From a virus: 64,000 bases of DNA. The notes beneath the pieces were generated by a model. The model was not told where the DNA came from. It was given only the letters and a program-made list of their open reading frames with translations, and did no database searches. How positions within the stretch are numbered: the first letter of the stretch is position 1; every line of letters begins with the position of its first letter. The DNA is taken from IMG/VR virus record IMGVR_UViG_3300008262_000008. One strand, given 5' to 3'. Of this stretch, positions 8,407 to 24,639 are shown piece after piece. The translations under genes were made by a program, and so were the position numbers.

Positions 8407-8418
8407 TTCTTCCCCTTA

Positions 8419-10434: not shown

Positions 10435-10868
10435 TATTCAGCTCTCTTTAAAATGAAGTCTATTGATTGAACTATTGGTTGTCCTACAATTGTATAGGTT
10501 ATTTCAACGTCCAACTCATTACTATCTTCATAACCAGTAACAATCACATCAGAAATAATTATTCTCGAATCAAAATTATTAACAGTATTTATGATCTCAT
10601 CCCTAATTTCTGTGACTAAAATGGGATCTAGAGGTTCAAATAATAAATTATATACTTTACTACCAACATTAGGTTGAAATAGTTTTGTGCCAAGACCAGT
10701 TAAAACTAAATTTTTGATAGCATTTTTTATAGCTTCTTCATTTTTTAATGAAATTGCATCTTTAGTTGAGTAATTCACGCCTAAAGACATAGCAATATCT
10801 CTAAATGCTTTGCTCGTTAGAGTACCAGAAGCTGAATATCTATCAAATTTTTCTGATCTTACGGTCAT
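10434..10868 (-). CDS. gp25: Baseplate wedge subunit gp25
   Basis: 144 aa; AIKNAIKNLVLT...FQPNVGS...LLFEP...RI gp25 (GPW_gp25) pattern; directly upstream of gp6. Confidence 0.93.
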   Translation of the reverse strand: MTVRSEKFDRYSASGTLTSKAFRDIAMSLGVNYSTKDAISLKNEEAIKNAIKNLVLTGLGTKLFQPNVGSKVYNLLFEPLDPILVTEIRDEIINTVNNFDSRIIISDVIVTGYEDSNELDVEITYTIVGQPIVQSIDFILKRAE

Positions 10869-10869
10869 T

Positions 10870-11064
10870 TTATTCGTGCCATCTCTCTACGAAATCATCA
10901 AATCCATATGAACCACCGCAAGGTCTAGAATAACGGTCTTCTGGCACATTATATCTAAAAGATTTTAGGTATCTTTCGCTACCATAATCAGTTATTAGGC
11001 ATTTTGTACCTAAATCTTCATACATTATATCAAAATTACGATCTGGATTTGGGGAAATTGCCAT
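10870..11064 (-). CDS. Small conserved hypothetical protein
   Basis: ORF track gives 10870..11091; the likely start is MAISPNPDR at 11064. Confidence 0.7.
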   Translation of the reverse strand: MAISPNPDRNFDIMYEDLGTKCLITDYGSERYLKSFRYNVPEDRYSRPCGGSYGFDDFVERWHE

Positions 11065-11184
11065 TTTTGCTCCTTTCGAACTGATTTTCACCAGAACTTT
11101 TAAGGGAGGTTGCTATCTCCATCATTATTTATCACTGTTTTTGGCATGAAAAAAGGTATCTGAATTCAGATACCCTTAAAAATA

Positions 11185-11331
11185 TTAATTTCCTTGCCCA
11201 CGATAACGCTTTTTGCGTCCATTGCGTGAGGTTGCTGCCAAATTTGTATTTTTACTACGTCCCTGACTAGTAATTTTTGGTTTACCAGGAACATAATTTG
11301 TCTTAACTAGACCAATTTTTGATTTTGCCAT
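11185..11331 (-). CDS. Small, highly basic protein (48 aa, MAKSKIGLVKTNY...RKKRYRGQGN)
   Basis: Translated by hand, below the ORF-track cutoff; fills the gap between the PAAR gene and 10870. Confidence 0.75.
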   Translation of the reverse strand: MAKSKIGLVKTNYVPGKPKITSQGRSKNTNLAATSRNGRKKRYRGQGN

Positions 11332-11379
11332 ATAAAAAACCTAAAGACTATAAGATTTTACCATAAATTTTTGAAAATG

Positions 11380-11952
11380 TCAATCCCCAACAAAGACATC
11401 TACGGCACCTCCACCAATTAAACTTAAACAACCAACATGCATACCATTTAAAGGATCACCAACTCGACATAATCGTTTTTTATTTACAAATACACTCTTT
11501 CCAGTTGATACTGCTTTTCTTTCATGACCAATGCCATTCTTATCTTCTACTACTAATGATACACTACAATTGCATGTGGTAGGTGGTGTTGTGGGGGGAT
11601 TACCTGGACAAGTAGTAATCACAGTATTCATTGTTGGCGATATATGATATGTCAATAAGTCTTGATCCAGAATAGGTACAATTTTATTAATTAATACTAC
11701 TCCTTGTAAAGCAGATCCTACAACTGCTGGAGGCATAGGCACAAGTGGAGTTGGCGGCCAATAGCATTGAGCATTTTTTTGCACTAATGGAAGCTTAATT
11801 GCTGGATCCCCACAAGCGGCTGTGAGGCATAATGAACTCTGAGTAGGATGTTGTGCTAAAGGACCGCCAGCAGCAGCGCCTATTCCATGCCCAGTACAAG
11901 ATCCTCTATAAATTCCTGCAGGTTTTTTTAAACTACATGCTTCTGCTGCCAT
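11380..11952 (-). CDS. PAAR-like spike tip protein (gp5.4-like), extended and Cys/His-rich
   Basis: N-terminal GxCTGH; C-terminal SVFVNKKRLCRVGDPL...IGGGAVDVFVGD resembles PAAR repeats; baseplate context. Confidence 0.8.
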   Translation of the reverse strand: MAAEACSLKKPAGIYRGSCTGHGIGAAAGGPLAQHPTQSSLCLTAACGDPAIKLPLVQKNAQCYWPPTPLVPMPPAVVGSALQGVVLINKIVPILDQDLLTYHISPTMNTVITTCPGNPPTTPPTTCNCSVSLVVEDKNGIGHERKAVSTGKSVFVNKKRLCRVGDPLNGMHVGCLSLIGGGAVDVFVGD

Positions 11953-11964
11953 ATTTTACTCCTA

Positions 11965-14115
11965 TTAATTGCAGATTGCTGGAAATGGATTGCCATATGC
12001 ATTAACTGTTTGACCCCATAATACTGCTTCATTTGAAAAATTATGATGAATACCAATTGTGCCACTAATTGTATAGTCTACGCATCCTGTGCCACTATAA
12101 GATGTAGTTACAGTTGAATATGTTGCTCCACCTGTATATGGTGTTGTTCCAACCCCTGTGACCGTTCCAGCGCAAGCTGGTGACGTTCCCGTAAAGGTAC
12201 TAAAAATATTTATAGGTCCATTAGCAGAAACAGTTAATGTACTTCCACTTACACTCAATACAGTAGCTATAGTTCCATTATTGAATGTTAGAGTTTGATT
12301 TATTGCATTACTACCAGAAGTTAATGATACTGTAATTGATGTAGATACTGCTCCAATACAAGTTGAACAGTTATCGTTAGTAACGTCTACTACCATAGTG
12401 ACATTTATACTGGCAGTCTCTCTAGAATCTGGAGAATAATCAATCATATTATATTTTGTATCACTTGTAGCACAAGGAAGATCAAACCAAGATCCAACAG
12501 TACTATAAACTTTTCTAGCTCTTACTGATACAGTTTTACTTTCATCATCACTAATTGCTTGATAATAACTATCATTAGCAGAATTTGAACCAGGAACAAC
12601 TTGATCAGTATAGATTTTACCTAACTTTGGTACTGTATCTGTTAATGTTTTAGATACACTTGGATCAATATACTGAGGTTTTATTTTTTCAGCAAGATCT
12701 TTTCTCAATCCTGTTCTGCCAACTCTTCTAGTTTTTATTTCAATTGGATCTTCTTCAACAGTGAATGGTGGAATACCATATTCAACCTTAATCTCACTAT
12801 ATCCAGGTTCAAGCCTTTCTAAGAATTCTTCTTTAGAATAACCATAATAGTTTCTTGCATTAGGAGTTGCATCATAAGCATTTAAAAATTCTTTATGGAT
12901 TTCTTTTGCATCTCTTTTTTCTGATGCGATATCTATCCTTGTTTGATTTGTTGATGAAACAAAAGCAGCTGGTGGTGATGCATCAAGATATCCAGATCCA
13001 GGATATACGACTTTAACAGATAATAGACTACCACCTACCCATTGCCCTTCCAATTTTGCAAAATCCCCACCAGTATTGGGTGGATCAATACCAATTGGAG
13101 GACGATTATTTAATTTATCAAATCCAGATCCACCAGTGATTACTGTTACTCCAGTTACATATCCATTTACTACTGATACTGATAATTCAGGTTCAATAAC
13201 TTCACCCCAAGGATATCCATTTTCAACAGTTGCTTTCGTATACCAAATAGTTTTATTTCTAAATTCATATAATCCAACAAGTACACATTTATCTGTAATT
13301 CCTTTTCCTGCTTTGACTGTTGCTGTAGCTGTAGCAGATGAAATTGATTGATTATATGTAAAATTAGATCCAGATCCACTCAAGTAAAGTACATGCATAT
13401 TGATGGATGTATCAGTTGTAAAGACCTGTGATATTGTCCATCCATTGATTACTTGACCGACTTGAAAACGAGTTGCAGCGGTGCCACCATAACCATTCGA
13501 ATAAGTAATAGCAACTCTTAGATCATTTGTACCTACAGTTCTAATTAATGGAAATGGATCTTTTTCTCCTGCATCAGTTAATTTGCCATCTGTAGTAGTA
13601 TAAGTTAATCCTACACTTATGGGAGGACATAAAACACCAGTTCCAGGAGTTGTAATCTTTGTTGCTCCATTACAACCATAGTAACCTTTAGTAAGTGTGG
13701 TAGCAGTCGTTCCCCCTGTAGGAGGAGCTCCCCCAACACCAGGAGTTGCACCAGTTGTAGTACTGCTAGTAGTAGTTTGCAAACATGGCCATCCACCTAC
13801 ATGAGATGATAAGTCCCACAGATAATACCACCATTGTGAAGATTCGATTGGAGTAAAACTCAATGCTGAAGGTGCTGCATCAAACACTCTTGAACGAATA
13901 GTTCCAGTTCCACCAGAATAGGTATCATCAACATATGGATAAACGACACAATCCGTTTCATGTCCTGGATATGGATCATACCCATAACGAGTGTACAAAC
14001 TCTCTGGAGACATTACTTTAGTGATTGCAATACCACTTGAATAAGCTACACCAGTATAGGTAAATCCATTACTTGTGAATGTTCCGTTACTAGGTACAAC
14101 GCATGTCGCAACCAT
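11965..14115 (-). CDS. Virion structural protein (baseplate/tail associated)
   Basis: 716 aa, Thr/Gly-rich, with VTVITGGSGF / VVYPGSGY beta repeats like those in gp7. Confidence 0.7.
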   Translation of the reverse strand: MVATCVVPSNGTFTSNGFTYTGVAYSSGIAITKVMSPESLYTRYGYDPYPGHETDCVVYPYVDDTYSGGTGTIRSRVFDAAPSALSFTPIESSQWWYYLWDLSSHVGGWPCLQTTTSSTTTGATPGVGGAPPTGGTTATTLTKGYYGCNGATKITTPGTGVLCPPISVGLTYTTTDGKLTDAGEKDPFPLIRTVGTNDLRVAITYSNGYGGTAATRFQVGQVINGWTISQVFTTDTSINMHVLYLSGSGSNFTYNQSISSATATATVKAGKGITDKCVLVGLYEFRNKTIWYTKATVENGYPWGEVIEPELSVSVVNGYVTGVTVITGGSGFDKLNNRPPIGIDPPNTGGDFAKLEGQWVGGSLLSVKVVYPGSGYLDASPPAAFVSSTNQTRIDIASEKRDAKEIHKEFLNAYDATPNARNYYGYSKEEFLERLEPGYSEIKVEYGIPPFTVEEDPIEIKTRRVGRTGLRKDLAEKIKPQYIDPSVSKTLTDTVPKLGKIYTDQVVPGSNSANDSYYQAISDDESKTVSVRARKVYSTVGSWFDLPCATSDTKYNMIDYSPDSRETASINVTMVVDVTNDNCSTCIGAVSTSITVSLTSGSNAINQTLTFNNGTIATVLSVSGSTLTVSANGPINIFSTFTGTSPACAGTVTGVGTTPYTGGATYSTVTTSYSGTGCVDYTISGTIGIHHNFSNEAVLWGQTVNAYGNPFPAICN

Positions 14116-14318: not shown

Positions 14319-14992
14319 CAGTTTTTTACTCCAATTAAAGAATAACGTGGTTCGTTCACATACCAATCTCTCTCAAGAAACGCGGAATGAAACAGATTTC
14401 CATCGTAGATAACGAGACGATTATACTTCATTTCCGAAAGATAATACATACACCACTTATCATCCTCAACAATAGTCTCCCATTCCGTTTCTTTATCAGA
14501 ACTATTCTTAACTGCACTCTCAATTTCTGCCTGAATCGCGGCGGGGGTCCTTTTCCAGTTAGTATATAACTTCTTATACGCATAAAATCCCGTGCCACCT
14601 TGACAATCCTGATTTAACCAAAGATTTGCTACGGTATCAGTATAGTCTACATGCGGGAGATTATTCCTAAATCGCGCAGGCATACTGCCAGAATAGATGT
14701 TAGTTGCCCAGGTAAAGAAGGTTTCTTCTCTAAAGAAATCATTCAGAAAGTTGTTGATATTATACAACCAACCTCTCGTAATATGTTGACGACTACCTGG
14801 TGATAAATCAAAGTTAAACTCTGAGTTAATAAACGCAGGGAAATACTCAAGGAACTCCCTACAATCTTCAGGGTGGGAGAGGAAGTCATCAAAATAATAC
14901 CAGTCAGCACCTAACACACTCTCTTTGTAGAAAGTATGTTTGGGATTAATCTGAGTGGCATGATCAACAAATGCTTTTGATAAAAAATTCAT
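14318..14992 (-). CDS. 2OG-Fe(II) oxygenase-like protein (DUF6445-like)
   Basis: PHVD (HxD), GGTGFY and YNRLVIYDGNLFHS (distal His) motifs. Confidence 0.75.
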   Translation of the reverse strand: MNFLSKAFVDHATQINPKHTFYKESVLGADWYYFDDFLSHPEDCREFLEYFPAFINSEFNFDLSPGSRQHITRGWLYNINNFLNDFFREETFFTWATNIYSGSMPARFRNNLPHVDYTDTVANLWLNQDCQGGTGFYAYKKLYTNWKRTPAAIQAEIESAVKNSSDKETEWETIVEDDKWCMYYLSEMKYNRLVIYDGNLFHSAFLERDWYVNEPRYSLIGVKN

Positions 14993-15150
14993 TCTTCAAC
15001 TTTTGTTAAAATAATAGTGTCTTCATCAAGTGAATATGAGATAACATCGCCTTCTAACCATCCCAATTCTTCAATGAGATCATCTGGTAATTTTACAAAT
15101 AAATCTCCACTATCGTCTTCTTCTAAATTAAGTGTATATTTTTTTGACAT
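14989..15150 (-). CDS. AbrB/MazE-like small DNA-binding protein (53 aa)
   Basis: Translated by hand: MSKKYTLNLEEDDSGDLFVKLPDDLIEELGWLEGDVISYSLDEDTIILTKVEE; xLPxxLxxxLGWxxGD swapped-hairpin pattern. Confidence 0.75.
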   Translation of the reverse strand: MSKKYTLNLEEDDSGDLFVKLPDDLIEELGWLEGDVISYSLDEDTIILTKVEE

Positions 15151-15158
15151 AAGATCTC

Positions 15159-15392
15159 CTAAAAATCGTCGATTTTTAAAGTGACGGTCTTACAATCATA
15201 ATCTATCATGAATAAGATTTCCTTATTGTCTAACCATTCTAGTTTTTCTAGAATGTCTTTTGGTATCATGGTTAATAACTCATCATCCTCAGTATAACAA
15301 TATGCAATCTTATCTGTTAGATTATTTAATTCTTCCTCTGTTACACTAGTATCTTTTACTTCTACTGAACTAATATCAATTGTTTCATCCAT
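15159..15392 (-). CDS. AbrB-like protein (divergent)
   Basis: LLTMIPKDILEKLEWLDNKEILFMID...VTLK resembles the same pattern. Confidence 0.5.
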   Translation of the reverse strand: MDETIDISSVEVKDTSVTEEELNNLTDKIAYCYTEDDELLTMIPKDILEKLEWLDNKEILFMIDYDCKTVTLKIDDF

Positions 15393-15393
15393 A

Positions 15394-15561
15394 TCAAATA
15401 CTCCATACTGTCTGTAGTTTTAATTCTACTAAAAGTTCACCTGCCTGTCCAGAGACATCAGGATCTACATGAGTATTCTCTGTTTGTTCTAGAAGAGAAA
15501 ACAGATAATCTAATTCTTTCTGAGATAACGTAATGTTATGAAGTTTAATTTTCTTTGTCAT
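15394..15561 (-). CDS. Hypothetical protein (55 aa)
   Basis: Translated by hand, MTKKIKLHNITLSQKELDYL...VWSI; fills the gap between flanking genes. Confidence 0.6.
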   Translation of the reverse strand: MTKKIKLHNITLSQKELDYLFSLLEQTENTHVDPDVSGQAGELLVELKLQTVWSI

Positions 15562-15563
15562 GA

Positions 15564-15971
15564 TTAGTTACAAACTGAAGATCCAAGTGCAAAACCAAGA
15601 GGTAATGACCATCGAAGCGCCTCGTTTTTACTCAACGCCCCAGCAATTGCAGCACCATATGCCCCACTAGTGAGACTATTGCACTTTCGTTGCTGTTGTA
15701 TATATGGAGGATTTTGTGGAATTTGTTGAGGATAATAACCCTGAGATCTACAGGGAACTCTCTCTACTCCATACGATACACGCCCTGGCACCCAGTTGCC
15801 ATATGGATCGTAGAACCCAGGAGAATACCTCTCAGTAGGGATCTCGACCATGCATCCAGTGTGATAGTACCCCCCAGTGTTATAGTTCCTCATTTGTGCA
15901 TTTGCAGGGGTCATCAACCCTACAGACCCAAAAATTACCGCGAAAAAAATTTTGAAATCCTTGATTGCCAT
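15564..15971 (-). CDS. Conserved cyanophage secreted/membrane protein with a C-terminal glycine-zipper-like segment
   Basis: Likely start MAIKDFKIFF at 15971; N-terminal hydrophobic signal; C-terminal GAYGAAIAGAL...WSLPLGFALGSSVC. Confidence 0.7.
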   Translation of the reverse strand: MAIKDFKIFFAVIFGSVGLMTPANAQMRNYNTGGYYHTGCMVEIPTERYSPGFYDPYGNWVPGRVSYGVERVPCRSQGYYPQQIPQNPPYIQQQRKCNSLTSGAYGAAIAGALSKNEALRWSLPLGFALGSSVCN

Positions 15972-16066
15972 TTGTGTTTTTCCCCTGAGAGTATAATTGA
16001 AAGACATTCTTGTAGACACATCCAAATATAACTGATCTCTTCTATGAATGTCGTCTTTGTAGACAT
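15935..16066 (-). CDS. Small hypothetical protein (43 aa, MSTKTTFIEEISYIWMCL...)
   Basis: Translated by hand; lies downstream of the CTAAATA late promoter at 16101-16107. Confidence 0.5.
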   Translation of the reverse strand: MSTKTTFIEEISYIWMCLQECLSIILSGEKHKWQSRISKFFSR

Positions 16067-16100
16067 CTGTTACCTACGAAAAAATTTTTGATTATCGATA

Positions 16101-16107
16101 TATTTAG
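16101..16107 (-). promoter_or_regulatory. T4-type late (gp55) promoter, CTAAATA
   Basis: Minus-strand CTAAATA at the head of the leftward structural block. Confidence 0.55.
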
Positions 16108-16173
16108 AGGGTGCTTTAGGGACCGTTATAGATTACATAGGACCCGAAAGATTATATAAAGGGGGGGTATATA

Positions 16174-16216
16174 CTGCCTCTAAGTATAACTAACTCCTCT
16201 GCCTCTGTGTATAACT
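16174..16216. repeat. 18-bp direct repeat x2 (CTGCCTCT-NN-GTATAACT)
   Basis: 16174-16191 and 16199-16216, 16/18 identical, non-coding. Confidence 0.8.
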
Positions 16217-16218
16217 CA

Positions 16219-16238
16219 GAGGGGCACAGATGCCCCTC
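16219..16238 (-). terminator. GC-rich hairpin GAGGGGCA-TCTG-TGCCCCTC, probable terminator
   Basis: Perfect 8-bp stem just after the 16258 stop; U-tail is weak. Confidence 0.5.
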
Positions 16239-16257
16239 CAAGATCACTCTAACTCAT

Positions 16258-16410
16258 TCAGAAGTCGATATATTCCAGAGTGGGAACATTGCCCTCAGAG
16301 GTATTCTCAGAGGTGCTCACACTGTCAGAGGTGAGGGAATCGAGAATAGAGAGAATTTCCTCCCCGTTGTTACCTTGGCGCAGCATCGAGATCATCACTT
16401 GCTTAGACAT
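16258..16410 (-). CDS. Small hypothetical protein (50 aa, MSKQVMISMLRQGNNGEEILSILDSL...)
   Basis: Translated by hand; preceded by CTAAATA at 16455-16461. Confidence 0.65.
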   Translation of the reverse strand: MSKQVMISMLRQGNNGEEILSILDSLTSDSVSTSENTSEGNVPTLEYIDF

Positions 16411-16489
16411 AATGTGTTCGGTTCGTTGTTAGTTAGTGTGTGTTTGAAGAGGTATATTTAGTGACCCCATCTCTCCAGGGTCAGATATA

Positions 16490-16768
16490 TCAGAGATCTT
16501 GCATCATTTCATTCATTTCGTCGGCATTGATCTTAGGATCGTTCCACTTAACGCCGTCCTTTGTTTTAACAAGATGGCGACCAATTTGCCCATCAATCAT
16601 ACAACGAACAAACTTATCCCAAGGCGTTTCGTTATCACCACAGAACTCAACACATGCTTTGGCAGTGTTATAGAGAAACTCATCATTGCCAATCCACAGT
16701 GCTACATTCCAGGTCTCATAATTTGCCCAACCGTTGTAACCTTTGTCGATGGTGTTGGTGATAGTCAT
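16490..16768 (-). CDS. Conserved phage hypothetical protein (YNGWANYETWNVALW motif)
   Basis: 92 aa; directly downstream of the promoter at 16814-16842. Confidence 0.8.
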   Translation of the reverse strand: MTITNTIDKGYNGWANYETWNVALWIGNDEFLYNTAKACVEFCGDNETPWDKFVRCMIDGQIGRHLVKTKDGVKWNDPKINADEMNEMMQDL

Positions 16769-16813
16769 TTGAGGTGATTTGTGTGTGGGGTCTCTCTCAA
16801 CCCCTGTGATAGT

Positions 16814-16890
16814 AGTATGGCAGCAAATGGGGGGAAAGTCAAGGGGTTATCTATCAGTGCTGCTTATGGGTCAAATAAGAGGGTCTGATA
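16814..16890 (-). promoter_or_regulatory. Sigma70-type early promoter with two upstream dyads
   Basis: -35 TTGACT (16837-16842), 17 bp, -10 CATACT (16814-16819); dyads at 16852-16868 and 16874-16890. Confidence 0.8.
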
Positions 16891-16922
16891 GGTATATTTT
16901 GTGTGGGTCTGGGTAAAATCAC

Positions 16923-16951
16923 TTGACAAGTCGATAAATAACTGCTAAGGT
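16923..16951 (+). promoter_or_regulatory. Rightward (antisense) sigma70 promoter with an embedded late-promoter motif
   Basis: TTGACA (16923-16928), 17 bp, extended TGn-TAAGGT (16943-16951); ATAAATA at 16934-16940. Confidence 0.6.
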
Positions 16952-17025
16952 CTACATCAACTCCGCCTATTTTCTGATCATTCTCTCTATACACATCACG
17001 AACATATATTTTTTTAGGTATTTCT

Positions 17026-17105
17026 TTTTCCACAACTTTTTCCACAGAAATTAACACAAATTGTGGAAAACTTCCGCAACTAACATAGAAACATAGTTTT
17101 CCACA
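17026..17105. repeat. Cluster of four perfect TTTTCCACA nonamers (DnaA-box-like)
   Basis: + at 17026-17034, 17038-17046 and 17097-17105; reverse at 17062-17070. Confidence 0.85.
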
Positions 17106-17176
17106 TCCGCATCATCTAGAAACAAAAGTTCTTCTAACACGATTTCATCTAGTGGGAGATCTTCAGAGAATGACAT
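17051..17176 (-). CDS. Possible small acidic ORF (41 aa, MSFSEDLPLDEIVLEELL...)
   Basis: Translated by hand; overlaps two of the TTTTCCACA boxes. Confidence 0.4.
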   Translation of the reverse strand: MSFSEDLPLDEIVLEELLFLDDADVENYVSMLVAEVFHNLC

Positions 17177-17441
17177 CAGGATCAGCACCAACAGATTTAA
17201 TCATTTCAGAGACATCTTCATCATCATAGTATAAACGAAGTTCTGCAATCAGTTCATCTTGTTCTAGTCCTGAGACATTATTTACAATCGTATCGAATAC
17301 AAATTGTTCCATCGTTTTCATGTCCATGCTATCAACCAACTGAGTTGCATAGTTATCAACGAGGTCAGAGAGTTGTGCTTCGGTCAGCATAGTTTTAGAG
17401 GGTTCAGATTTAAGGACTTCAATGTAAAGATCTTCAGTCAT
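17163..17441 (-). CDS. Hypothetical acidic protein
   Basis: ORF track, in the minus-strand early gene run. Confidence 0.7.
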   Translation of the reverse strand: MTEDLYIEVLKSEPSKTMLTEAQLSDLVDNYATQLVDSMDMKTMEQFVFDTIVNNVSGLEQDELIAELRLYYDDEDVSEMIKSVGADPDVIL

Positions 17442-17540
17442 CTTTCTTCTTAGTTGTTGAATTGTGAGAAAAAAGTATAGGACGAATCTGTTTAGTATTG
17501 GTGCGAATTGCGTTTGTTTGACGTTGTTGACGGGACATGA

Positions 17541-17690
17541 TTAGTTGCCTTGAATGATGTCAGCAGCAGTGTGAAGTACCTCTCCTGTTGTATATCGTAC
17601 CGAGGGATTGAAGATAAACAACAGGAGGAAGATTAGACCTAGAACTTTCATCTTATCAGGTGACTTGAAAGTGAGAGTTTTAGAGGACAT
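17541..17690 (-). CDS. Small membrane protein
   Basis: Likely start MSSKT at 17690; one hydrophobic segment (VLGLIFLLLFIF). Confidence 0.65.
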   Translation of the reverse strand: MSSKTLTFKSPDKMKVLGLIFLLLFIFNPSVRYTTGEVLHTAADIIQGN

Positions 17691-17692
17691 CT

Positions 17693-18007
17693 TCAGTTCA
17701 GACGCATACCAGAGAAGAAAGGAATCGTCATGCCATTGTAACGAATGAACCACTTAAAGTCTTTCTGAAAGACATACTCACCAGGGCAACCATGCTCGGC
17801 AAGAATAGCATTGAGGCGGGACTTTGTGGTAACAGTTTGCCAACCACCATCGAAAAGTTCAATCCAAGTTTCACCAATGCGAGCGATCAGATTACCATGC
17901 AGGTACACATCGCTGGAGTTAGTATAAGAAATGACTTCGGTATTCTTACACTTCCAATCTTTGCCGTTGGTGATAGCAGTGTTCATTTGGCGTTCGATTT
18001 GGCGCAT
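17693..18007 (-). CDS. Conserved cyanophage hypothetical protein (MRQIERQM...)
   Basis: 104 aa; first gene after the promoter at 18034. Confidence 0.8.
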   Translation of the reverse strand: MRQIERQMNTAITNGKDWKCKNTEVISYTNSSDVYLHGNLIARIGETWIELFDGGWQTVTTKSRLNAILAEHGCPGEYVFQKDFKWFIRYNGMTIPFFSGMRLN

Positions 18008-18033
18008 TTGAGGCGTTTCCTGATTACCTTGTA

Positions 18034-18110
18034 AGGATAGAACGGATCGGGCAGAAAGTCAAGCGTTTTGAGATTAGTGTTGCTTATCAGACTGATTAGC
18101 AACGATTATC
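18034..18110 (-). promoter_or_regulatory. Sigma70-type early promoter with tandem dyads
   Basis: TTGACT (18057-18062), 17 bp, TATCCT (18034-18039); dyads at 18072-18088 and 18094-18110. Confidence 0.85.
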
Positions 18111-18273
18111 GATTCTTATATTGACAATCAGGGGAAAACTCTTTAATCTGTTCGCAGATTTGTGCCTGACGTTGTTTGTATGCATCAAACATTTTGTTAT
18201 CACGTTGGATCAGAAATACGTTCCAACCGAGAATAGCAGCAAATGCAAGTGTGGCGTAAAGATAGAGTTTCAT
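18106..18273 (-). CDS. Small membrane protein (55 aa, MKLYLYATLAFAAILGW...)
   Basis: Translated by hand; N-terminal hydrophobic helix. Confidence 0.65.
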   Translation of the reverse strand: MKLYLYATLAFAAILGWNVFLIQRDNKMFDAYKQRQAQICEQIKEFSPDCQYKNR

Positions 18274-18292
18274 GATTCAATTTAGAATTAAA

Positions 18293-18565
18293 TTAAACGA
18301 GGCAAAGTGCAGGAGCAGGTTGAACCAAATAGGAGAAACGTGTTGCCGTTACAGATGCACCAGCAAGACCAATCTCATCTACAATCTCCCACTCATCTTC
18401 CATCTCACGAATTACAACATAACCGAAAGTTCCTGCGATTGGCATTTGCTCAAGACCACAACGTTCTGCCTGTCGTTGAGTGCTAAAACGCTCTTTACGA
18501 TTCCACCAACCGAGACGATTTACGTCTTCAGAAGGTCCGAAACTGATGCAAATGTATTCAGGCAT
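18293..18565 (-). CDS. Hypothetical protein
   Basis: ORF track, 90 aa. Confidence 0.65.
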   Translation of the reverse strand: MPEYICISFGPSEDVNRLGWWNRKERFSTQRQAERCGLEQMPIAGTFGYVVIREMEDEWEIVDEIGLAGASVTATRFSYLVQPAPALCLV

Positions 18566-18568
18566 GAT

Positions 18569-18730
18569 TTACACAGAAGGAGTAACGTTGATCTCTTTAA
18601 TGTTCAACCCACAGAGTTGATTGTAGACCCGATTGAGAATAAGTTTGTCGGCGGTCTTTGCCTTTGATTTCTCATACCAAATGGTCACACATCCATCGTA
18701 GGTCTCAACACGAACACGATAGTTTTTCAT
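18569..18730 (-). CDS. Small hypothetical protein (53 aa, MKNYRVRVETYDGC...)
   Basis: Translated by hand; ATGA-type overlap with the neighbour. Confidence 0.65.
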   Translation of the reverse strand: MKNYRVRVETYDGCVTIWYEKSKAKTADKLILNRVYNQLCGLNIKEINVTPSV

Positions 18731-18909
18731 GCGTTGTCGATTAGATCTTGTTCAATCTGGTGAAGTGTACTTACTGTCCAGTTCTCAGGATTACCATGAG
18801 GAGCATACAGTTGACTATAGCGAAGACCATAAAGATCAGGATTTAGATGTTGCAACTGTTCAAGAGTTTCAGCGATCTTAACGCTGATTTGGTGTTGATA
18901 ATCACTCAT
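18727..18909 (-). CDS. Hypothetical protein
   Basis: ORF track, 60 aa. Confidence 0.65.
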   Translation of the reverse strand: MSDYQHQISVKIAETLEQLQHLNPDLYGLRYSQLYAPHGNPENWTVSTLHQIEQDLIDNA

Positions 18910-18912
18910 GAT

Positions 18913-19077
18913 TCAGTAGTTAGAAACAACGGTGAAGATGATGCCAGTTTCGTTATAACGAAGAGTCACATCACAGTAATACTCTTCAGACAGATTGTAG
19001 GCGAGATCGTATGCCTTATCCATGTCAGTGGTAGTGTTCTCCCACGGTGCAGCGGGGCAAAGAACATCAACTCGCAT
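18913..19077 (-). CDS. Small hypothetical protein (54 aa, MRVDVLCPAAPWEN...)
   Basis: Translated by hand; first gene after the promoter at 19104. Confidence 0.7.
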   Translation of the reverse strand: MRVDVLCPAAPWENTTTDMDKAYDLAYNLSEEYYCDVTLRYNETGIIFTVVSNY

Positions 19078-19103
19078 TTGTTTCGTTTCCTGATTACCTT
19101 GTA

Positions 19104-19158
19104 AGGATAGGACGGATCACGCCAAAAGTCAAGCGTTTTGAGATTAGTGTTGCTTATC
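19104..19158 (-). promoter_or_regulatory. Sigma70-type early promoter with dyad
   Basis: TTGACT (19127-19132), 17 bp, TATCCT (19104-19109); dyad at 19142-19158. Confidence 0.85.
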
Positions 19159-19393
19159 GAAGAATGTGCCGATAATCAATTTCCCTAATCAACCAACCTG
19201 ATTGTGTTGCAATCTCTTCGCACAGTTCGTATGCTATATCAGCATCATCTGCATCGTTGTTTAGATCTAACTCAAAGATCTGTCCAATATAACGAGAGGG
19301 CAAAAACTCTTCAGTTTCAAGTTGATCTTGCTCACTCCAATCGTCATCATCAAGTGAACAATCAAATGCGATGTCAGTAACTTGAACTTGCAT
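19154..19393 (-). CDS. Hypothetical acidic protein
   Basis: ORF track, 79 aa. Confidence 0.7.
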   Translation of the reverse strand: MQVQVTDIAFDCSLDDDDWSEQDQLETEEFLPSRYIGQIFELDLNNDADDADIAYELCEEIATQSGWLIREIDYRHILR

Positions 19394-19395
19394 GA

Positions 19396-19524
19396 TTATT
19401 TGCGGAGAGGAGAATTGAAATAACGACGGAAAGCAGTAACAAGAATGATACCCGTCGAAATAACACCAACGAGACCAAGGAAGGTAACAGCATCGCCGCT
19501 GAAAGTGTAAGTATCAGGGTTCAT
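19396..19524 (-). CDS. Small membrane peptide (42 aa, MNPDTYTFSGDAVTFLGLVG...)
   Basis: Translated by hand; single TM segment followed by RR. Confidence 0.7.
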   Translation of the reverse strand: MNPDTYTFSGDAVTFLGLVGVISTGIILVTAFRRYFNSPLRK

Positions 19525-19766
19525 CAAAGTCCTCCTGCTTGATTAACAAATGATTTAGCATCGCAAACTGTATCAAAGTATGCGATAGTTTCAAGATCAA
19601 CAGCAGCAGCACCTGCAGCGAGATCTATATTCTTTACCTTACGAAGTTCGAATCCTTCGAGAACACCACCATAAATCTCACCAATATATTGTCCATCGAG
19701 AAAGATCCATTCTTGATAGTTAGGATCTGCCATGTTGCGCTCGTATGCAATAGAATTGTTGTTCAT
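19524..19766 (-). CDS. Hypothetical protein
   Basis: ORF track 19524..19775; likely start MNNN at 19766. Confidence 0.65.
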   Translation of the reverse strand: MNNNSIAYERNMADPNYQEWIFLDGQYIGEIYGGVLEGFELRKVKNIDLAAGAAAVDLETIAYFDTVCDAKSFVNQAGGL

Positions 19767-19771
19767 GATAA

Positions 19772-19918
19772 TCAACCTTGAGAAGCGTAGGACATCATTG
19801 CAATCACTTTATCGTACAGTTTCTCTACATCAACACCAACAGTTTCGGACACTTCTTGCCAATCATCATGAAAAGTGATAAGATCAGCGATTGCGGAAAG
19901 TTCGTCTGGAGTGAACAT
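19772..19918 (-). CDS. Small hypothetical protein (48 aa, MFTPDELSAIADL...)
   Basis: Translated by hand; first gene after the promoter at 19942. Confidence 0.65.
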   Translation of the reverse strand: MFTPDELSAIADLITFHDDWQEVSETVGVDVEKLYDKVIAMMSYASQG

Positions 19919-19941
19919 TTGTTTTCTTTGCTTACCTTGTA

Positions 19942-19996
19942 AGGATAGAACGGATTGCGGGAAAAGTCAAGCGTTTTGAGATTAGCGTTTCTTATG
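19942..19996 (-). promoter_or_regulatory. Sigma70-type early promoter with dyad
   Basis: TTGACT (19965-19970), 17 bp, TATCCT (19942-19947); dyad at 19980-19996. Confidence 0.85.
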
Positions 19997-20018
19997 GGTT
20001 AGATAAGAGACTCAAATG

Positions 20019-20597
20019 TCAGTTTTCCAGCATTTCAGTGATAATAGGACCGAGCACATCTTGAAAGAAAGTGAAGAACTCAGTAGACGTAAATGGTACG
20101 TTTCCAAGTGTATCAATCATCCAATTTACACCATACACAGTGATACCTTTCTTGCCATACTTCTTGATCACACTAGTCGGAACTTCAGCAATACAGGGCA
20201 CAAAATACCCAAACTGCACAGGCAAATTATACTTTGCTTCCACTGCTTCCTTTACATCGAGCACCTTCTGATTAGATGCTGGATTCTTCTCACTATCGAA
20301 GTTCAGATTACACTTGCTTTCAAGATATTGAATTGCACCACTTTTAGCAAAGAGATGATCTAACTGACGCTCACGCCCATTTACATCAATTCGATTGCTT
20401 TCTTCGATGAGATTAACTGAACAATCGCTAATTACCTTGTTCCAGAAGATTTCAAGTTGATTGCCTAATTGAATGAGCACACCATTTTGTGATACTTTAT
20501 CACCCAATCCTGCTGCTGCCAGCAAATAACTTTCCGTCTTTTTACGCTCAATTTGCAACACCAAGGGAAGCAGATTGTCAGTGAGATAGTTGTTCAT
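20019..20597 (-). CDS. Putative PD-(D/E)xK nuclease-fold protein
   Basis: RQLDHLF...YLESK gives a D...ExK arrangement; upstream LGNQLEIFW helix with Glu. Confidence 0.5.
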   Translation of the reverse strand: MNNYLTDNLLPLVLQIERKKTESYLLAAAGLGDKVSQNGVLIQLGNQLEIFWNKVISDCSVNLIEESNRIDVNGRERQLDHLFAKSGAIQYLESKCNLNFDSEKNPASNQKVLDVKEAVEAKYNLPVQFGYFVPCIAEVPTSVIKKYGKKGITVYGVNWMIDTLGNVPFTSTEFFTFFQDVLGPIITEMLEN

Positions 20598-20618
20598 TTG
20601 TGGTGATAATGAGGGTTT

Positions 20619-20741
20619 TCAGTCGTTCCAATACTCATCATATTCTTCTTCCGACATAGCAAACACCTTTGCAATCTCTTCACGATCTTCTTCACTAATG
20701 TCGAAGATTTCGCCTTGCATGTCAGCAATTTCGTCCCACAT
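20619..20741 (-). CDS. Small acidic peptide (40 aa, MWDEIADMQGE...)
   Basis: Translated by hand; first gene after the promoter at 20766. Confidence 0.6.
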   Translation of the reverse strand: MWDEIADMQGEIFDISEEDREEIAKVFAMSEEEYDEYWND

Positions 20742-20765
20742 GTGCTTTGTTTCGATTACTTTGTA

Positions 20766-20820
20766 ATGATAGAACGGATTGCCCCAAAAGTCAACCCCTG
20801 AAAGATCAGTGTTGCTTATG
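20766..20820 (-). promoter_or_regulatory. Sigma70-type early promoter with dyad
   Basis: TTGACT (20789-20794), 17 bp, TATCAT (20766-20771); dyad at 20804-20820. Confidence 0.85.
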
Positions 20821-20822
20821 GG

Positions 20823-21716
20823 TCACCATGCCTTTGCCAAGTTAAAGTTATTGAAACTAAAGACTTGACGATTGACTAGTTTGAGCGTACCATAATCGTT
20901 CGACATCACATAACCTTCGTGATCCGCAATTTGTCCATCAATATAACAGCAAACTCCGTATTCAGGAATAATCAAGTTCATGAAATCTTGCTTGATAGAC
21001 ATAATCATGCGGTAAAATGCGAACAATGCGACATCATAACCAGTTTCTTCCGCAAGTGCTGCGGGGTCAATATCTTTGCCTTCACGAATATAACGATTGA
21101 GCACAATCTTGAGATCTTTTGCTTGCTTTTCAGTCACAAAATCAACAGCAGCAGACAAGAACATTGCACTGCAAACTTTACGTTGCAGTGCAACATTTGC
21201 AGTAGGATCTACCTGAGCACCAAACTTGACAAAATAGACTTTATCATTGCTGATCAGTTCAGGTACATCAAACGATGCAACTACATCACGAAGATTATCA
21301 CCAGTGTACGAAGTATGGCAAGCAATGATAAACTGTTGCTTGATGATATTGTCAAACTTATAGGTGATAGTATTAGGGCGATAGGTATCATCACCACCGA
21401 AACCAATAAAATCACCTTGCACAATACCTTTGATGCGAGGCAGACAATCAAATGCTACATGCAAAATATCAGCAACTTTACCCTCATGGTTAGCATCAAT
21501 CAACTCATGAGAATAGTTGATCTTGATTTTCTTTTTATTGAAGACAGATTTAGTACCAACGAAGAACTTTCCAGTTTCAGGATCAGTGCCAAACACAATA
21601 GCAGGAGCACCATCCCATTTGATGCTAACTTTGCCAGAATGAGTGAACCAATCCAGCACTGACATATCGCCAGTGAGAATAAGATCTTCAGGATGTTCGA
21701 GATGGGTGTTTTTCAT
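20823..21716 (-). CDS. Conserved T4-like phage protein (DUF6267-like) with covalent nucleotidyltransferase / ligase motifs
   Basis: MKNTHLEHPED start; KWDG (motif I KxDG), QGDF (III), HEGYV (IV), LKLV (V). Confidence 0.7.
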   Translation of the reverse strand: MKNTHLEHPEDLILTGDMSVLDWFTHSGKVSIKWDGAPAIVFGTDPETGKFFVGTKSVFNKKKIKINYSHELIDANHEGKVADILHVAFDCLPRIKGIVQGDFIGFGGDDTYRPNTITYKFDNIIKQQFIIACHTSYTGDNLRDVVASFDVPELISNDKVYFVKFGAQVDPTANVALQRKVCSAMFLSAAVDFVTEKQAKDLKIVLNRYIREGKDIDPAALAEETGYDVALFAFYRMIMSIKQDFMNLIIPEYGVCCYIDGQIADHEGYVMSNDYGTLKLVNRQVFSFNNFNLAKAW

Positions 21717-21722
21717 GCTTTA

Positions 21723-21799
21723 AGTATGGCACACAATCAGGCAAAAGTCAACCCCTGAATGATCAGCGTTGCTTATCAGACAGAATAGGTCAACTTATC
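21723..21799 (-). promoter_or_regulatory. Sigma70-type early promoter (predicted leaderless transcript) with tandem dyads
   Basis: TTGACT (21746-21751), 17 bp, CATACT (21723-21728); ATG 7 nt downstream; dyads at 21761-21777 and 21783-21799. Confidence 0.85.
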
Positions 21800-22051
21800 T
21801 TTTAACTTTTGCATCGCACTGTAGGGTGTAGTTTTATTCAGATCAACTACACTTCCAACGGTTGTGCTATTCTTTGGTGCGTGGAATTGTTTTGTCTTGG
21901 TGTTGTAGAATCCCCAGATACAACGACATTCATCACCCAAATTGTAATCAAACCTACGATCAAAATAAATCCAGATTGCAATAACATTGCTCTTAAAGTC
22001 TGTGCGCTCATAGTGATAACCTTCGGGTGCTTTATGAAATAATAGTTTCAT
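21776..22051 (-). CDS. Conserved cyanophage hypothetical protein
   Basis: ORF track, 91 aa. Confidence 0.75.
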   Translation of the reverse strand: MKLLFHKAPEGYHYERTDFKSNVIAIWIYFDRRFDYNLGDECRCIWGFYNTKTKQFHAPKNSTTVGSVVDLNKTTPYSAMQKLKDKLTYSV

Positions 22052-22191
22052 GTGAATACTGCTGTAACTCCTATCACTTTAGCAGTAGGATTGCGAGCAA
22101 GTGCAGTACGCTTAGCATCAGCATAATCTCGTGCTTCAACTATCTCATCGAACACTTTGCCAGCAACATATAACTGAACTTTGCACTTCAT
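22048..22191 (-). CDS. Small hypothetical protein (47 aa, MKCKVQLYVAGKVFDEIVEARDYADAK...ARNP)
   Basis: Translated by hand; coupled at both ends; resembles the N-terminus of 34997..35332. Confidence 0.75.
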   Translation of the reverse strand: MKCKVQLYVAGKVFDEIVEARDYADAKRTALARNPTAKVIGVTAVFT

Positions 22192-22370
22192 CGTGTTTGA
22201 TTACGATACTTTCTCTTGACATATTTGCTCACAATATTATCAATCACAGGATACCATGGTTCTTTATTGCTAGGGTATCCAAGTTGCCGTGCTTCAGTGA
22301 GCAACATCATGATGCAGTTCTCTTCTTCTTGAGTGAGATTGAGGTAATTGATAATACTAGTTTCAATCAT
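22188..22370 (-). CDS. Hypothetical protein
   Basis: ORF track, 60 aa. Confidence 0.65.
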   Translation of the reverse strand: MIETSIINYLNLTQEEENCIMMLLTEARQLGYPSNKEPWYPVIDNIVSKYVKRKYRNQTR

Positions 22371-22600
22371 CAGTAGTGTGCTTCAGAGTAATCGAGTTGT
22401 GCAGAGTATTCTGCAATTTTATCGAAACACTTTTTACGCATTTCGGTATCAGCACCTTGCATAAATGAGAAGCAATACTTCATACGCTGTTCAGGATGTG
22501 CATTGATGCGAGCAATCTCTGCCTTCGATTTGTTGTATGCGGCATTATATGCAAACATTTCACGATCTTCGATGCTCATGGTGTGAAACTTGCGGTTCAT
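22370..22600 (-). CDS. Hypothetical protein
   Basis: ORF track; first gene after the promoter at 22623. Confidence 0.7.
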   Translation of the reverse strand: MNRKFHTMSIEDREMFAYNAAYNKSKAEIARINAHPEQRMKYCFSFMQGADTEMRKKCFDKIAEYSAQLDYSEAHY

Positions 22601-22622
22601 GTCGTTTCCTGATTACCTTGTA

Positions 22623-22677
22623 ATAATAAGGCAAAAGGGGGCAGATGTCAACCCCCTATTGATCAGCGTTACTTATG
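22623..22677 (-). promoter_or_regulatory. Sigma70-type early promoter with dyad
   Basis: TTGACA (22646-22651), 17 bp, TATTAT (22623-22628); dyad at 22661-22677. Confidence 0.85.
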
Positions 22678-22693
22678 AGTATGATAAAGTATT

Positions 22694-22816
22694 TTAATAT
22701 GTCATATTGTCATCAATTCTATAGTCTTCAGGATCACCGATGGTATCATCTTCCATCACATCATCAATCCAATCACGATTAAGTTCATCGCATTGAATGT
22801 CATCAAAAATGTTCAT
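22694..22816 (-). CDS. Small, very acidic peptide (40 aa)
   Basis: Translated by hand, MNIFDDIQCDELNRDWIDDVMEDD... Confidence 0.55.
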   Translation of the reverse strand: MNIFDDIQCDELNRDWIDDVMEDDTIGDPEDYRIDDNMTY

Positions 22817-22944
22817 GATTGTTTCTTTAATTTCTGAATAAATTGGTTACGTTGTTTCTTGAGTTGACGTGTTCGAGCAGAACGTTTAGGAGATTTATCG
22901 TTTCTCCCTTGTTTTCTCGGTGTTTCGTGTGATTTGAGGTGCAT
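22813..22944 (-). CDS. Small, very basic peptide (43 aa)
   Basis: Translated by hand, MHLKSHETPRKQGRNDKSPKRSAR...; ATGA overlap with the acidic peptide. Confidence 0.55.
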   Translation of the reverse strand: MHLKSHETPRKQGRNDKSPKRSARTRQLKKQRNQFIQKLKKQS

Positions 22945-23109
22945 TGTTCTTACTCATAGTCATAATCTATGATATAATCTATACTATAATCATCATATTC
23001 AATTTCATATTCTTCATCTGTTATGATTGGTTCTCTAAACTCTTTAACCCATTCAGAGAGAGATACTGTTGTAGAATACGGATTGAACTTGTTATACATG
23101 AGTTAGTCC

Positions 23110-23286
23110 TCAACGTTGATAATCTTCTTCAGAGAACTCATCATAGATCTTTTCTAGTTTTCGTTGGCGATTATTCTGTTTTTTAACATCATAACTGAAC
23201 TCATCATGGAAACGAAACCTAGTAGAAACTTTGTTTCGATGTGACTTTGGAGTATAGTCACTGTTACGACGGAAAGTTTTACCCAT
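23110..23286 (-). CDS. Small hypothetical protein (58 aa, MGKTFRR...)
   Basis: Translated by hand; basic N-terminus. Confidence 0.6.
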   Translation of the reverse strand: MGKTFRRNSDYTPKSHRNKVSTRFRFHDEFSYDVKKQNNRQRKLEKIYDEFSEEDYQR

Positions 23287-23409
23287 GTTTAATGTGATTT
23301 AAGCAATGTAAAGTACAATTTATTTAGACGACATGCAATCATTTTTGATTGCCTAGACATCATAGACCTCTTGCCAGTTGTTGTCAATAGGTCCAGTTTG
23401 GAAAGTGGA

Positions 23410-24639
23410 TCAGCGGGTTGCCACACTGATAGCAGGCAGACCTTGCACGAAGATGGTGTCAACAACCCCTTGCAATCTCTTGGCAATAGCACTACCATAG
23501 TTGGTGAACACTGGCACGATCACACTACCAAACTGTTTGCGATACAGATGACATGCACCTGCAGGAATACGACCAGCAGCAATATCCTTGGCATCATCTT
23601 TGTCCATACGGATAACACGACCGACAGTTTGTGCCATCTCGATGATAGGCATTTGACGCAACATGATGCAGTTGGTGAGACCAGGAACGTTGATACCTTC
23701 GGAAAGAATACTATAGTGAAGGAGCACAAACTTCTTGGATTTGTCTTTGCCCCACTCAGTCAGAGTGTCAAAGAACTTCTCACGATTGACCTTGGTACGA
23801 TTAACATAGGCACCGTGCTTAGAAGTGATGTGAAGGATGCCAAATCCACGCTCTTCAAGTTCCCTAAGAATGTCAGAGTTAGTGAGCATGTTCCACATCA
23901 CTTTGGTGCTGGGAGCAGCAACGAGCACCTTAGGATTGCCCTCCAGAGTGTCAAGAATGTCAACAATCATGTTACGATCTGCCTCAGCAGCAGTACGCTT
24001 ATCACGGGTGATGTCTACTTTGTAGGTATCAACTTGTGGAGGAATGATGCAACCAGTGTCAATCAGTTCTTTAGCAGCAACGTTGTGAATAATGTTGCCG
24101 TAGATGCTAACGTTGTTCATGCCGTTAGCATTAGGATTGGTATGATGTTTGGGAGTTGCAGTGAAGAAATACTTGCTATCTGCAGACATCGAAGTAGCAG
24201 CAACAGCAATAAAGTGAGACTTTTGAGTAGAATTGTGTGCCTCGTCGAAGTATGCTACATCAACATTCACACCAGCATCAACAACACGACCCAGAGAATG
24301 ATAGGTAGTGAAGATGATACGATTGGTGCCTGCATGTTGAGTAACCCAATCCGCAATCTTGTCGGATTTGGTAGTAGAATAGTGATGTGTCTCACCACTA
24401 TGAACGTGCATCACATTTGCAGAGGTGATAAACTCAAGAAACTCTGCAGAGAGTTGCTCAGCAAGCAGAATACGAGGTGCTACAACAACAGCAACCTGAC
24501 CAGGATTCTGCACAAAACGTTGCAGCAAGTTCATGATCATAACAAGAGTTTTCCCACCACCAGTAGGAAAAATAATTTGCCCAATATCGTGCTGGTTCAT
24601 TGCATCGAGAGCACGAGATTGATGTAGACGTAATTTCAT
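23410..24639 (-). CDS. Superfamily II DEAH-box helicase (ResIII-like)
   Basis: PTGGGKT (Walker A), YFDEAH, TATP, SEGINV and QTVGRVIR; likely start MKLRLHQ at 24639 (track start 24657 lies upstream of the predicted TSS). Confidence 0.9.
   Translation of the reverse strand: MKLRLHQSRALDAMNQHDIGQIIFPTGGGKTLVMIMNLLQRFVQNPGQVAVVVAPRILLAEQLSAEFLEFITSANVMHVHSGETHHYSTTKSDKIADWVTQHAGTNRIIFTTYHSLGRVVDAGVNVDVAYFDEAHNSTQKSHFIAVAATSMSADSKYFFTATPKHHTNPNANGMNNVSIYGNIIHNVAAKELIDTGCIIPPQVDTYKVDITRDKRTAAEADRNMIVDILDTLEGNPKVLVAAPSTKVMWNMLTNSDILRELEERGFGILHITSKHGAYVNRTKVNREKFFDTLTEWGKDKSKKFVLLHYSILSEGINVPGLTNCIMLRQMPIIEMAQTVGRVIRMDKDDAKDIAAGRIPAGACHLYRKQFGSVIVPVFTNYGSAIAKRLQGVVDTIFVQGLPAISVATR

Follow-up and report, generated by a model that had tools for sequence, protein, structure and literature searches.

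A conserved antisense promoter, T-rich tract and DnaA-box array in T4-like cyanophages, a candidate site for starting or timing phage replication

T4-like cyanophages are among the most abundant marine viruses and, as far as we know, their replication origins have not been mapped. P1 and many plasmids use auxiliary DnaA boxes. The replication origins oriF (uvsY) and oriG (gene 34) of phage T4 are R-loop origins, each consisting of a promoter and a downstream A+T-rich unwinding element where the transcript primes (PMC3016281); oriE has repeats and is served by a promoter of early type (Kreuzer and Brister 2010, PMC3016281). T5-like phages carry conserved DnaA-box pairs, 3 bp apart within inverted repeats, in the untranslated injection-stop (iss) region; these boxes are thought unlikely to be a replication origin, and their role is hypothesised (bioRxiv 10.1101/866236). 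In cyanobacteria, the nonamer TTTTCCACA is a documented DnaA box, and domain IV of Cyanothece DnaA binds cooperatively to a pair of boxes 2 nt apart (PMC4674748). The DnaA-trios of Synechococcus elongatus lie 3′ of TTTTCCACA after a 4-nt GC spacer, in the arrangement 5′-TTTTCCACATTTTCCACA-GCCC-CTACTACTACTGATC (PMC8287927 supplement). DnaA bound to its box can also block RNA polymerase in an orientation-dependent manner (Schaefer and Messer 1988, 1989, as cited in PMC10950094).

The sequence analysed here is a stretch of viral DNA of 64,000 nucleotides, called the window below. It comes from a T4-like cyanomyovirus, the nearest cultured relative of which is Synechococcus phage S-CREM1 (~73–87% identity in patches), and it encodes baseplate-wedge gp6-type genes and a UvsW-like helicase. 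The original prediction placed all genes on the minus strand, which holds for every long open reading frame (ORF) that is not embedded opposite a longer one. The element under study is found in a 394-bp gap separating two conserved small genes, 16490–16768 (phrog_871) and 17163–17441 (phrog_1352). Its supposed position at the boundary between the early and structural modules is only approximate. Specifically, the element lies ~2 kb inside a small-gene cluster, between the baseplate-wedge genes and the UvsW-like helicase gene. The PHROG matches of the neighbouring ORFs are to families of unknown function, or there is no match. G+C content rises from 30–36% in the structural genes (1–14000) to ~40% in the small-gene cluster around the element (16000–24000). 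Farther along the window, a tryptophan-halogenase-family gene (PF04820, E 5e-100) adjoins a 2OG-Fe(II) oxygenase gene (36338–38454), and after this pair comes a run of ~10 similar-sized ORFs (170–220 aa, 38.4–45.5 kb), four of which were tested and gave no Pfam match.

The gap contains four exact TTTTCCACA boxes within 80 bp. Boxes 1 (17026–17034) and 2 (17038–17046) form a tandem on the plus strand with a 3-bp spacer, ACT. Box 3 (17062–17070) is inverted, on the minus strand, 15 bp from box 2, and is followed by a conserved tail, CTTCCGC (17071–17077), so that box and tail together span 17062–17077. Box 4 (17097–17105), on the plus strand, belongs to this lineage only and is absent at the equivalent place in S-CREM1 and in the IMG/VR contig L149. 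Number, positions and strands are those originally predicted, and a scan of both strands of the 64 kb shows no exact box elsewhere. Dinucleotide shuffles of the window yield a mean of 1.32 exact sites, consistent with the earlier rough figure of one chance nonamer per 64 kb. From this shuffle rate we estimate that ~1e-9 clusters of four sites within 80 bp would be expected by chance, in agreement with the view that the cluster is unlikely to be accidental. One-mismatch variants of the box are not enriched in the window (19 found, 31 expected), and no iteron family besides the boxes was seen in it.

A plus-strand promoter (16923–16951) points at the boxes and opposes all neighbouring genes. It has a −35 element, TTGACA (16923–16928), and a −10 element, TAAGGT (16946–16951), separated by a 17-nt spacer that ends in TGC (extended −10). 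The promoter is present in the form first proposed, TTGACA-17-TGnTAAGGT, and recurs together with boxes in relatives. A consensus promoter scanner does not list 16923–16951, because the −10 element is weak and matches TATAAT at only three of six positions. The heptamer ATAAATA, to which the original prediction drew attention within this promoter, does occur at 16934–16940; it is probably a coincidence, because relatives have another spacer sequence there. The promoter scan does list an early σ70-type promoter on the minus strand (16814–16842; TTGACT, 17 nt, TGcCATACT), which serves gene 16490–16768 and is found in the same form upstream of the S-CREM1 homologue. The early and the antisense promoters are arranged back to back, with 81 bp between their −35 boxes.

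The DNA around the early promoter has some features of its own. Short direct repeats of GGGTCTG (GGGTCTGATAGG, GGGTCTGGGTAA) lie between the divergent promoters at 16860–16920, and the equivalent region of S-CREM1 reads GGGGTCTGAGAGACCTGGGGG. A small hairpin, GGGGTTGAGAGAGACCCC (16787–16804), is located in the 5′ leader of gene 16490–16768 directly after the early promoter (16780–16842, minus strand). The S-CREM1 homologue of this gene has the same promoter and a near-identical hairpin (L001 3763–3830).

The predicted plus-strand transcript begins with a C/A-rich leader (16958–17000), the first nine positions of which (16958–16966) are the conserved CAACTCCGC; the leader consensus in relatives is AACAACnnCTCCGCACA. 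The leader lacks an ATG and thus holds no plus-strand ORF. The transcript has a weak predicted fold (−12 kcal/mol, z −1.9), an Rfam scan of 15.5–18.5 kb at E up to 1 gave no match, and no intrinsic terminator is predicted on either strand between 16400 and 18100. A structured sRNA was rejected as the main reading because of this weak folding and the absence of a predicted terminator. Leader length varies from ~35 to 110 nt across phages, and the leaders of L149/L150, L032 and L001 contain one to three copies of a short motif, (C)AGAGACA(T/C), between promoter and T-rich tract, which could be further protein sites.

Between the leader and box 1 is a T-rich, easily melted tract (ACATATATTTTTTTAGGTATTTC, 17001–17025), which duplex stability and conservation mark as a candidate unwinding element. 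Consistent with the AT-rich tract expected at about 17001–17029, A+T content is 86% over that interval, with a T7 run at 17009–17015. Duplex stability has a local minimum in the 30-bp segment starting at 17000, which ranks within the bottom 1.3% of such segments across the window and the bottom 0.2% between 15 and 19.5 kb. The tract has the family consensus ACCTATRTTTTTTTAAyMATTT and is kept in S-CREM1, in S-RSM4 and in many IMG/VR contigs.

Two ORFs cover the boxes. Boxes 3 and 4 fall inside a 41-aa orphan ORF on the minus strand (17051–17176; ATG at 17176, stop at 17051), as the original prediction cautioned, and boxes 1 and 2 fall inside a GTG-started 67-aa minus-strand ORF. The reality of the 41-aa ORF is doubtful, and the end of the upstream gene, 17163–17441, runs across its ATG. 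A PHROG search assigned neither ORF to a family. In addition, tblastn of the 41-aa peptide against 50,697 phage records at E up to 10 found no homologue and returned only two chance matches, to a Streptomyces phage portal gene (E = 2). Since the 41-aa ORF lacks homologues and S-CREM1 has the element between genes, the peptide does not explain the conservation, contrary to what had been named as a possible refutation, and the peptide explanation was rejected for both ORFs. The element is probably non-coding. The Syn9 annotation includes the box site in gp86, a small hypothetical gene (L151 1425–1583; compare 16854–17057 of the window); small hypothetical genes annotated over the box array, such as this one, are probably not real genes.

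An 85-bp core (16997–17081) comprises the T-rich tract, TTTTCCACA-ACT-TTTTCCACA, a spacer of 14–15 bp whose sequence is free, TGTGGAAAA and CTTCCGC. Identity to this core is 85% in S-CREM1 and 83% in the IMG/VR contigs L149 and L150, where the flanking genes differ, and the ACT spacer between the tandem boxes is common to S-CREM1 and L149. The boxes are thus conserved in relatives, as the original prediction required, and independently of the overlapping ORF. A search of phage records with the core gave 99 matches, 87 of them in cyanophages. Convergent pairs 14–15 bp apart are found again in S-CREM1, Syn9 and many contigs, with spacers of varying sequence. An exact-match scan of IMG/VR for close relatives that could reveal fine-scale conservation found none. 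One metagenome contig is 99.66% identical over 14616–17830, too close to inform on conservation; its sole difference inside the element, A to G at 17008, is at the R position of the consensus.

Exact boxes are also clustered in relatives. The 178-kb genome of S-CREM1 has six, five of which are within 650 bp. Among 12 cyanomyovirus reference genomes scored for clusters of exact boxes, half have one, namely S-CREM1, Syn9, S-PM2, Syn1, Syn19 and S-SM1 (a single cluster in each of the last five), and half do not (S-SSM7, S-RSM4, P-SSM2, P-SSM4, P-HM1 and P-HM2). Clusters occur in six of the eight cyanomyoviruses isolated on or assigned to Synechococcus versus none of the four isolated on Prochlorococcus, which in this small sample suggests a host-linked distribution. 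In the genomes searched whole, the module is confined to one small region of each genome. The element stays between the baseplate genes and uvsW without a fixed neighbour. Specifically, only five of 53 loci picked via phrog_1352 homologues have a box cluster within 1.5 kb, and fixed synteny was rejected on this count. These comparisons suggest that the window carries its own version of a control module conserved among cyanomyoviruses.

S-RSM4 shows which parts of the module can be separated. It has no exact DnaA box in its whole genome and retains promoter, leader and T-tract almost letter for letter. After the T-tract it carries a different perfect 9-bp inverted repeat, TTCTCAATA-N10-TATTGAGAA (L334 14262–14289; NC_013085 140261–140288). 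Other repeats, AGAGACAT and GATTCTCAATAGCA, are present in some relatives. The motif GATTCTCAATAGCA is related to the S-RSM4 repeat and recurs nearby in S-RSM4 and in contigs L154 and L161; the repeat and this motif may be the site of another DNA-binding protein. The class-A T-tract motif was not found in nine of ten reference genomes and occurs only in P-HM1, at two isolated sites, so the cassette differs between lineages. The boxes are an exchangeable accessory of a more widely kept cassette of promoter and T-tract. They are not a universal origin determinant, because half of the references have no cluster and S-RSM4 is boxless.

Where boxes are present, they are coupled to the promoter. Loci selected by their boxes carry TTGAC-N15/16-TGC followed by TAAGAC, TAAGCC or TAAACC, 70–130 nt away and aimed at the boxes, and L149 has a perfect TTGACT-17-TATAAT. 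The strict promoter motif is aimed at the boxes in 12 of 24 box-selected loci, versus an expectation of 0.056 per locus, and is thus enriched about tenfold. When loci are found via the promoter alone, every member with a recognisable leader has a perfect box within 190 nt, with the exception of L181. Polarity of the first box after the promoter is the same in 36 of 38 non-redundant members, in which the non-template strand reads TTTTCCACA (binomial p = 5e-9, uncorrected for relatedness). In 17 of 20 mapped comparison loci the flanking genes are on the strand opposite to the tandem boxes, or opposite to the promoter where the box triple is flipped (L073, L111); the other three loci (L004, L039, L087) were given no call.

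The nonamer itself is of host type. Direct TTTTCCACA pairs within 30 nt are found in 125 of 151 Cyanobacteriia genomes, versus two of 151 for the reversed control, and in 25 of the 26 genomes of one cyanobacterial family. Tandem pairs with 2–3 bp spacers are common in cyanobacterial genomes, and a 2.2-Mb cyanobacterial genome (G283) has a box cluster ~450 bp upstream of dnaN. The literature and these pair counts both support the original assignment of the boxes to the cyanobacterial DnaA type. The 96 arrays of cyanomyovirus-like contigs divide into 46 with tandem boxes only and 50 with an inverted member. Such a variety of arrangements fits a monomer-binding protein such as DnaA and not a hairpin or a symmetric dimer. 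Judging from the documented box type, the pair counts in hosts, the adjacency to dnaN and the varied arrangements, we consider it probable that host DnaA binds the boxes.

The phage layout is nevertheless not that of a host origin. The locus shares its 9-mer with cyanobacterial oriC and its basal unwinding system (BUS), where tandem pairs are 0–3 bp apart (PMC4674748, PMC8287927), and whereas the BUS criterion accepts a box with up to two mismatches to the species motif, all four boxes here are perfect. The criterion further asks for at least three DnaA-trios (NAN on the TGTGGAAAA strand) within 16 nt 3′ of TTTTCCACA, and then an AT-rich region. No trios follow box 2; the next 15 nt, GAAATTAACACAAAT, have no three T in a 3-nt register and lead into the inverted box. 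As for the T-rich tract, it precedes the tandem pair on the 5′ side, opposite to the unwinding side of BUS. The missing trio architecture and the side on which the tract lies give no support to unwinding by DnaA. Unlike cyanobacterial oriC, the locus has neither trios nor an AT-rich region 3′ of the tandem pair, it is not beside dnaN or dnaA, and its convergent layout is rare in hosts. A convergent pair with a 10–20 bp spacer occurs in three of 201 genomes of the cyanobacterial phylum and in about half of the phage arrays, and the full composite pattern occurs in 30 of ~185,000 species genomes; these 30 come from diverse phyla and include one Synechococcus-labelled MAG. In view of this rarity, we rejected the idea that the phages copied a host oriC layout.

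Cumulative GC skew, which had been suggested as a means of locating an origin, shows no switch of sign in the window; outside 16–20 kb, 29 of 31 2-kb bins have negative skew, and only within that interval is it flat. An origin signal from GC skew was accordingly rejected, and the test is a weak one for T4-like phages.

The description of T4 origins as a promoter with a downstream unwinding element, given in the original prediction, is confirmed for oriF and oriG (PMC3016281). The module resembles these origins in being a compact unit of ~100 bp, in a T4-like phage, in which a promoter is followed by a short A+T-rich tract, a candidate unwinding element. As in the minimal origins of oriF and oriG, the promoter is inside ~100 bp, and it is of host or early type, unlike the MotA-dependent middle promoters of oriF and oriG. 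To our knowledge, MotA-dependent middle promoters are not known in cyanophages. The early-type promoter and the repeats are reminiscent of oriE. In T4, origins are located at changes in the direction of transcription, and the lone antisense promoter creates such a point here. Unlike the module, T4 origins are without DnaA boxes, and the host initiator is not used. The hybrid origin originally proposed, combining transcription priming with host DnaA, is therefore a candidate supported in part: the promoter and downstream A+T-rich layout agree with oriF and oriG, and a GC-skew switch, trios and universality are missing.

DnaA boxes in phage DNA are not new in kind, given the T5-like precedent. 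Compared by description, boxes 1–3 reproduce the iss arrangement of a 3-bp box pair plus an inverted box in an untranslated region. T5 has ~8 boxes, many of them degenerate, in the terminal repeat and tied to two-step DNA injection, whereas here three or four perfect boxes are coupled to a promoter and a T-tract at an internal position between baseplate genes and the UvsW-like helicase gene, in a window that stops short of the genome termini. We know of no two-step injection in this phage group. In having a DnaA-box cluster, the element also shares a feature of datA, a type further defined by an IHF site and stimulation of DnaA-ATP hydrolysis. The datA and asnC-terminator DnaA-box blocks of E. 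coli (PMC10950094) are non-origin box clusters that meet passing transcription, a likeness that extends to the element here with its predicted DnaA binding; unlike datA, the element is viral and not chromosomal. A literature search found no paper that links cyanophages with DnaA boxes or that describes this element.

The reading we favour, tentatively and at somewhat less than even chances, is that of a T4-type start site at which host DnaA positions the transcript. According to this reading, a σ70 promoter with an extended −10 element would transcribe a short unstructured leader into the ~25–30 bp melting T-rich tract. Host DnaA, still present in the infected cell, would bind the boxes beyond the tract. 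Promoter and tract would act like oriF and oriG, with an R-loop of the transcript in the unwinding element priming early phage DNA synthesis. Two features, the fixed first-box polarity and the lack of a predicted intrinsic terminator, suggest an effect of bound DnaA on the antisense polymerase. DnaA would serve as a directional stop or anchor and halt the polymerase at the T-tract, and the halt would set where and when the primer forms; DnaA itself would not unwind the DNA. The anatomy, its conservation, the promoter–box coupling and the host-type identity of the boxes are observed; the steps that involve binding of DnaA, firing of the promoter, priming by an R-loop and a roadblock are predictions. 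Some features fit less well. At 25–30 bp, the tract, 45–70 nt downstream of the promoter, is short, and a U-rich RNA is predicted across it. With few G residues and a terminal U-run, the leader RNA would tend to form weak RNA–DNA hybrids and not a stable R-loop. The conserved leader sequence is not needed by an R-loop origin and counts against the origin reading. The broader proposition, that in many T4-like cyanophages of Synechococcus early replication begins at one R-loop origin with an antisense primer positioned by polarity-fixed host DnaA, seems to us rather unlikely.

Nearly as likely as the T4-type start site, and doubtful when taken alone, is a purely transcriptional switch or insulator without a replication role, in which the antisense promoter would oppose read-through from upstream early genes. 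Box-bound host DnaA would gate the travel of the antisense, and perhaps also the sense, polymerase and so tie early-gene expression to the state of the host initiator. Such a switch would account for a promoter that is antisense to all neighbouring genes and back to back with an early promoter, for the fixed polarity of the first box relative to it and for the conserved leader sequence. The region from 16400 to 18100 has no intrinsic terminator on either strand, so something else must end the transcripts, and RNA polymerase blocking by DnaA–box complexes is known (cited in PMC10950094). However, a switch gives the conserved T-rich tract no role, and S-RSM4 does without boxes. S-RSM4 also bears on a reading without DnaA, in which a protein encoded by the phage, or another protein of the host, recognises the 9-mer, or a DNA or RNA hairpin forms from the inverted pair, as a different perfect 9-bp inverted repeat stands at the same place there. 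The rarity of the convergent pair with a 10–20 bp spacer in cyanobacterial genomes (3/201) points the same way, as do an inverted pair in L002 whose two arms share a mirrored T to C change, and the pairing of box 3 with box 1 or 2 in single-stranded DNA (−8.4 kcal/mol, z −3.8). We regard this reading as distinctly unlikely, since about half of the relatives' arrays are tandem-only, which neither a hairpin nor a symmetric dimer can explain. Moreover, every arm is an exact host DnaA box and covariation is almost absent, spacing is kept while the spacer sequence is free, the RNA fold is weak, and neither a DnaA-like nor any other candidate binding protein was identified among the neighbouring ORFs.

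The remaining two readings, which with the preceding one are less likely than the start site and the switch, give the boxes a passive role or none. As a datA-like sink, raised in the original prediction, multiplying phage arrays would soak up host DnaA and shut off host initiation, with no part in phage replication or transcription. The boxes are perfect, of high-affinity type and tightly clustered, and five small cyanobacterial genomes have no excess of exact boxes over the reversed control, so that a burst of phage copies could outnumber the host sites. Yet there are only three to four sites per phage genome, many relatives have no array, and titration needs neither strict promoter coupling nor fixed polarity. 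T4-like phages degrade host DNA, which would leave a sink little to do, and we judge this reading very unlikely. An origin of the array by chance or as a by-product of coding would draw on the location of boxes 3 and 4 in the 41-aa ORF and of boxes 1 and 2 in the GTG-started 67-aa ORF. It is effectively refuted by the ~1e-9 such clusters expected, by the lack of a family for either ORF and of a homologue for the 41-aa peptide, and by conservation of the element where it is intergenic in relatives.

On the evidence of its sequence and its relatives, the module is a good candidate for the place where related phages start or time their own replication. It is a defined candidate of ~200 bp, and S-CREM1, Syn9 and S-PM2 are culturable relatives with box clusters. 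If the boxes prove to be only an optional regulatory add-on, the module still marks a conserved antisense promoter that the deposited annotations missed. The fixed polarity of promoter and boxes would offer a natural system for directional DnaA roadblocks. If host DnaA docks at the boxes, these phages would sense or make use of the host's replication state, a connection not foreseen from T4 biology. If the R-loop/DnaA origin is true, it would be a hybrid of transcript-primed and initiator-dependent origins, and no T4-like phage would have been shown before to recruit the initiator of its host.
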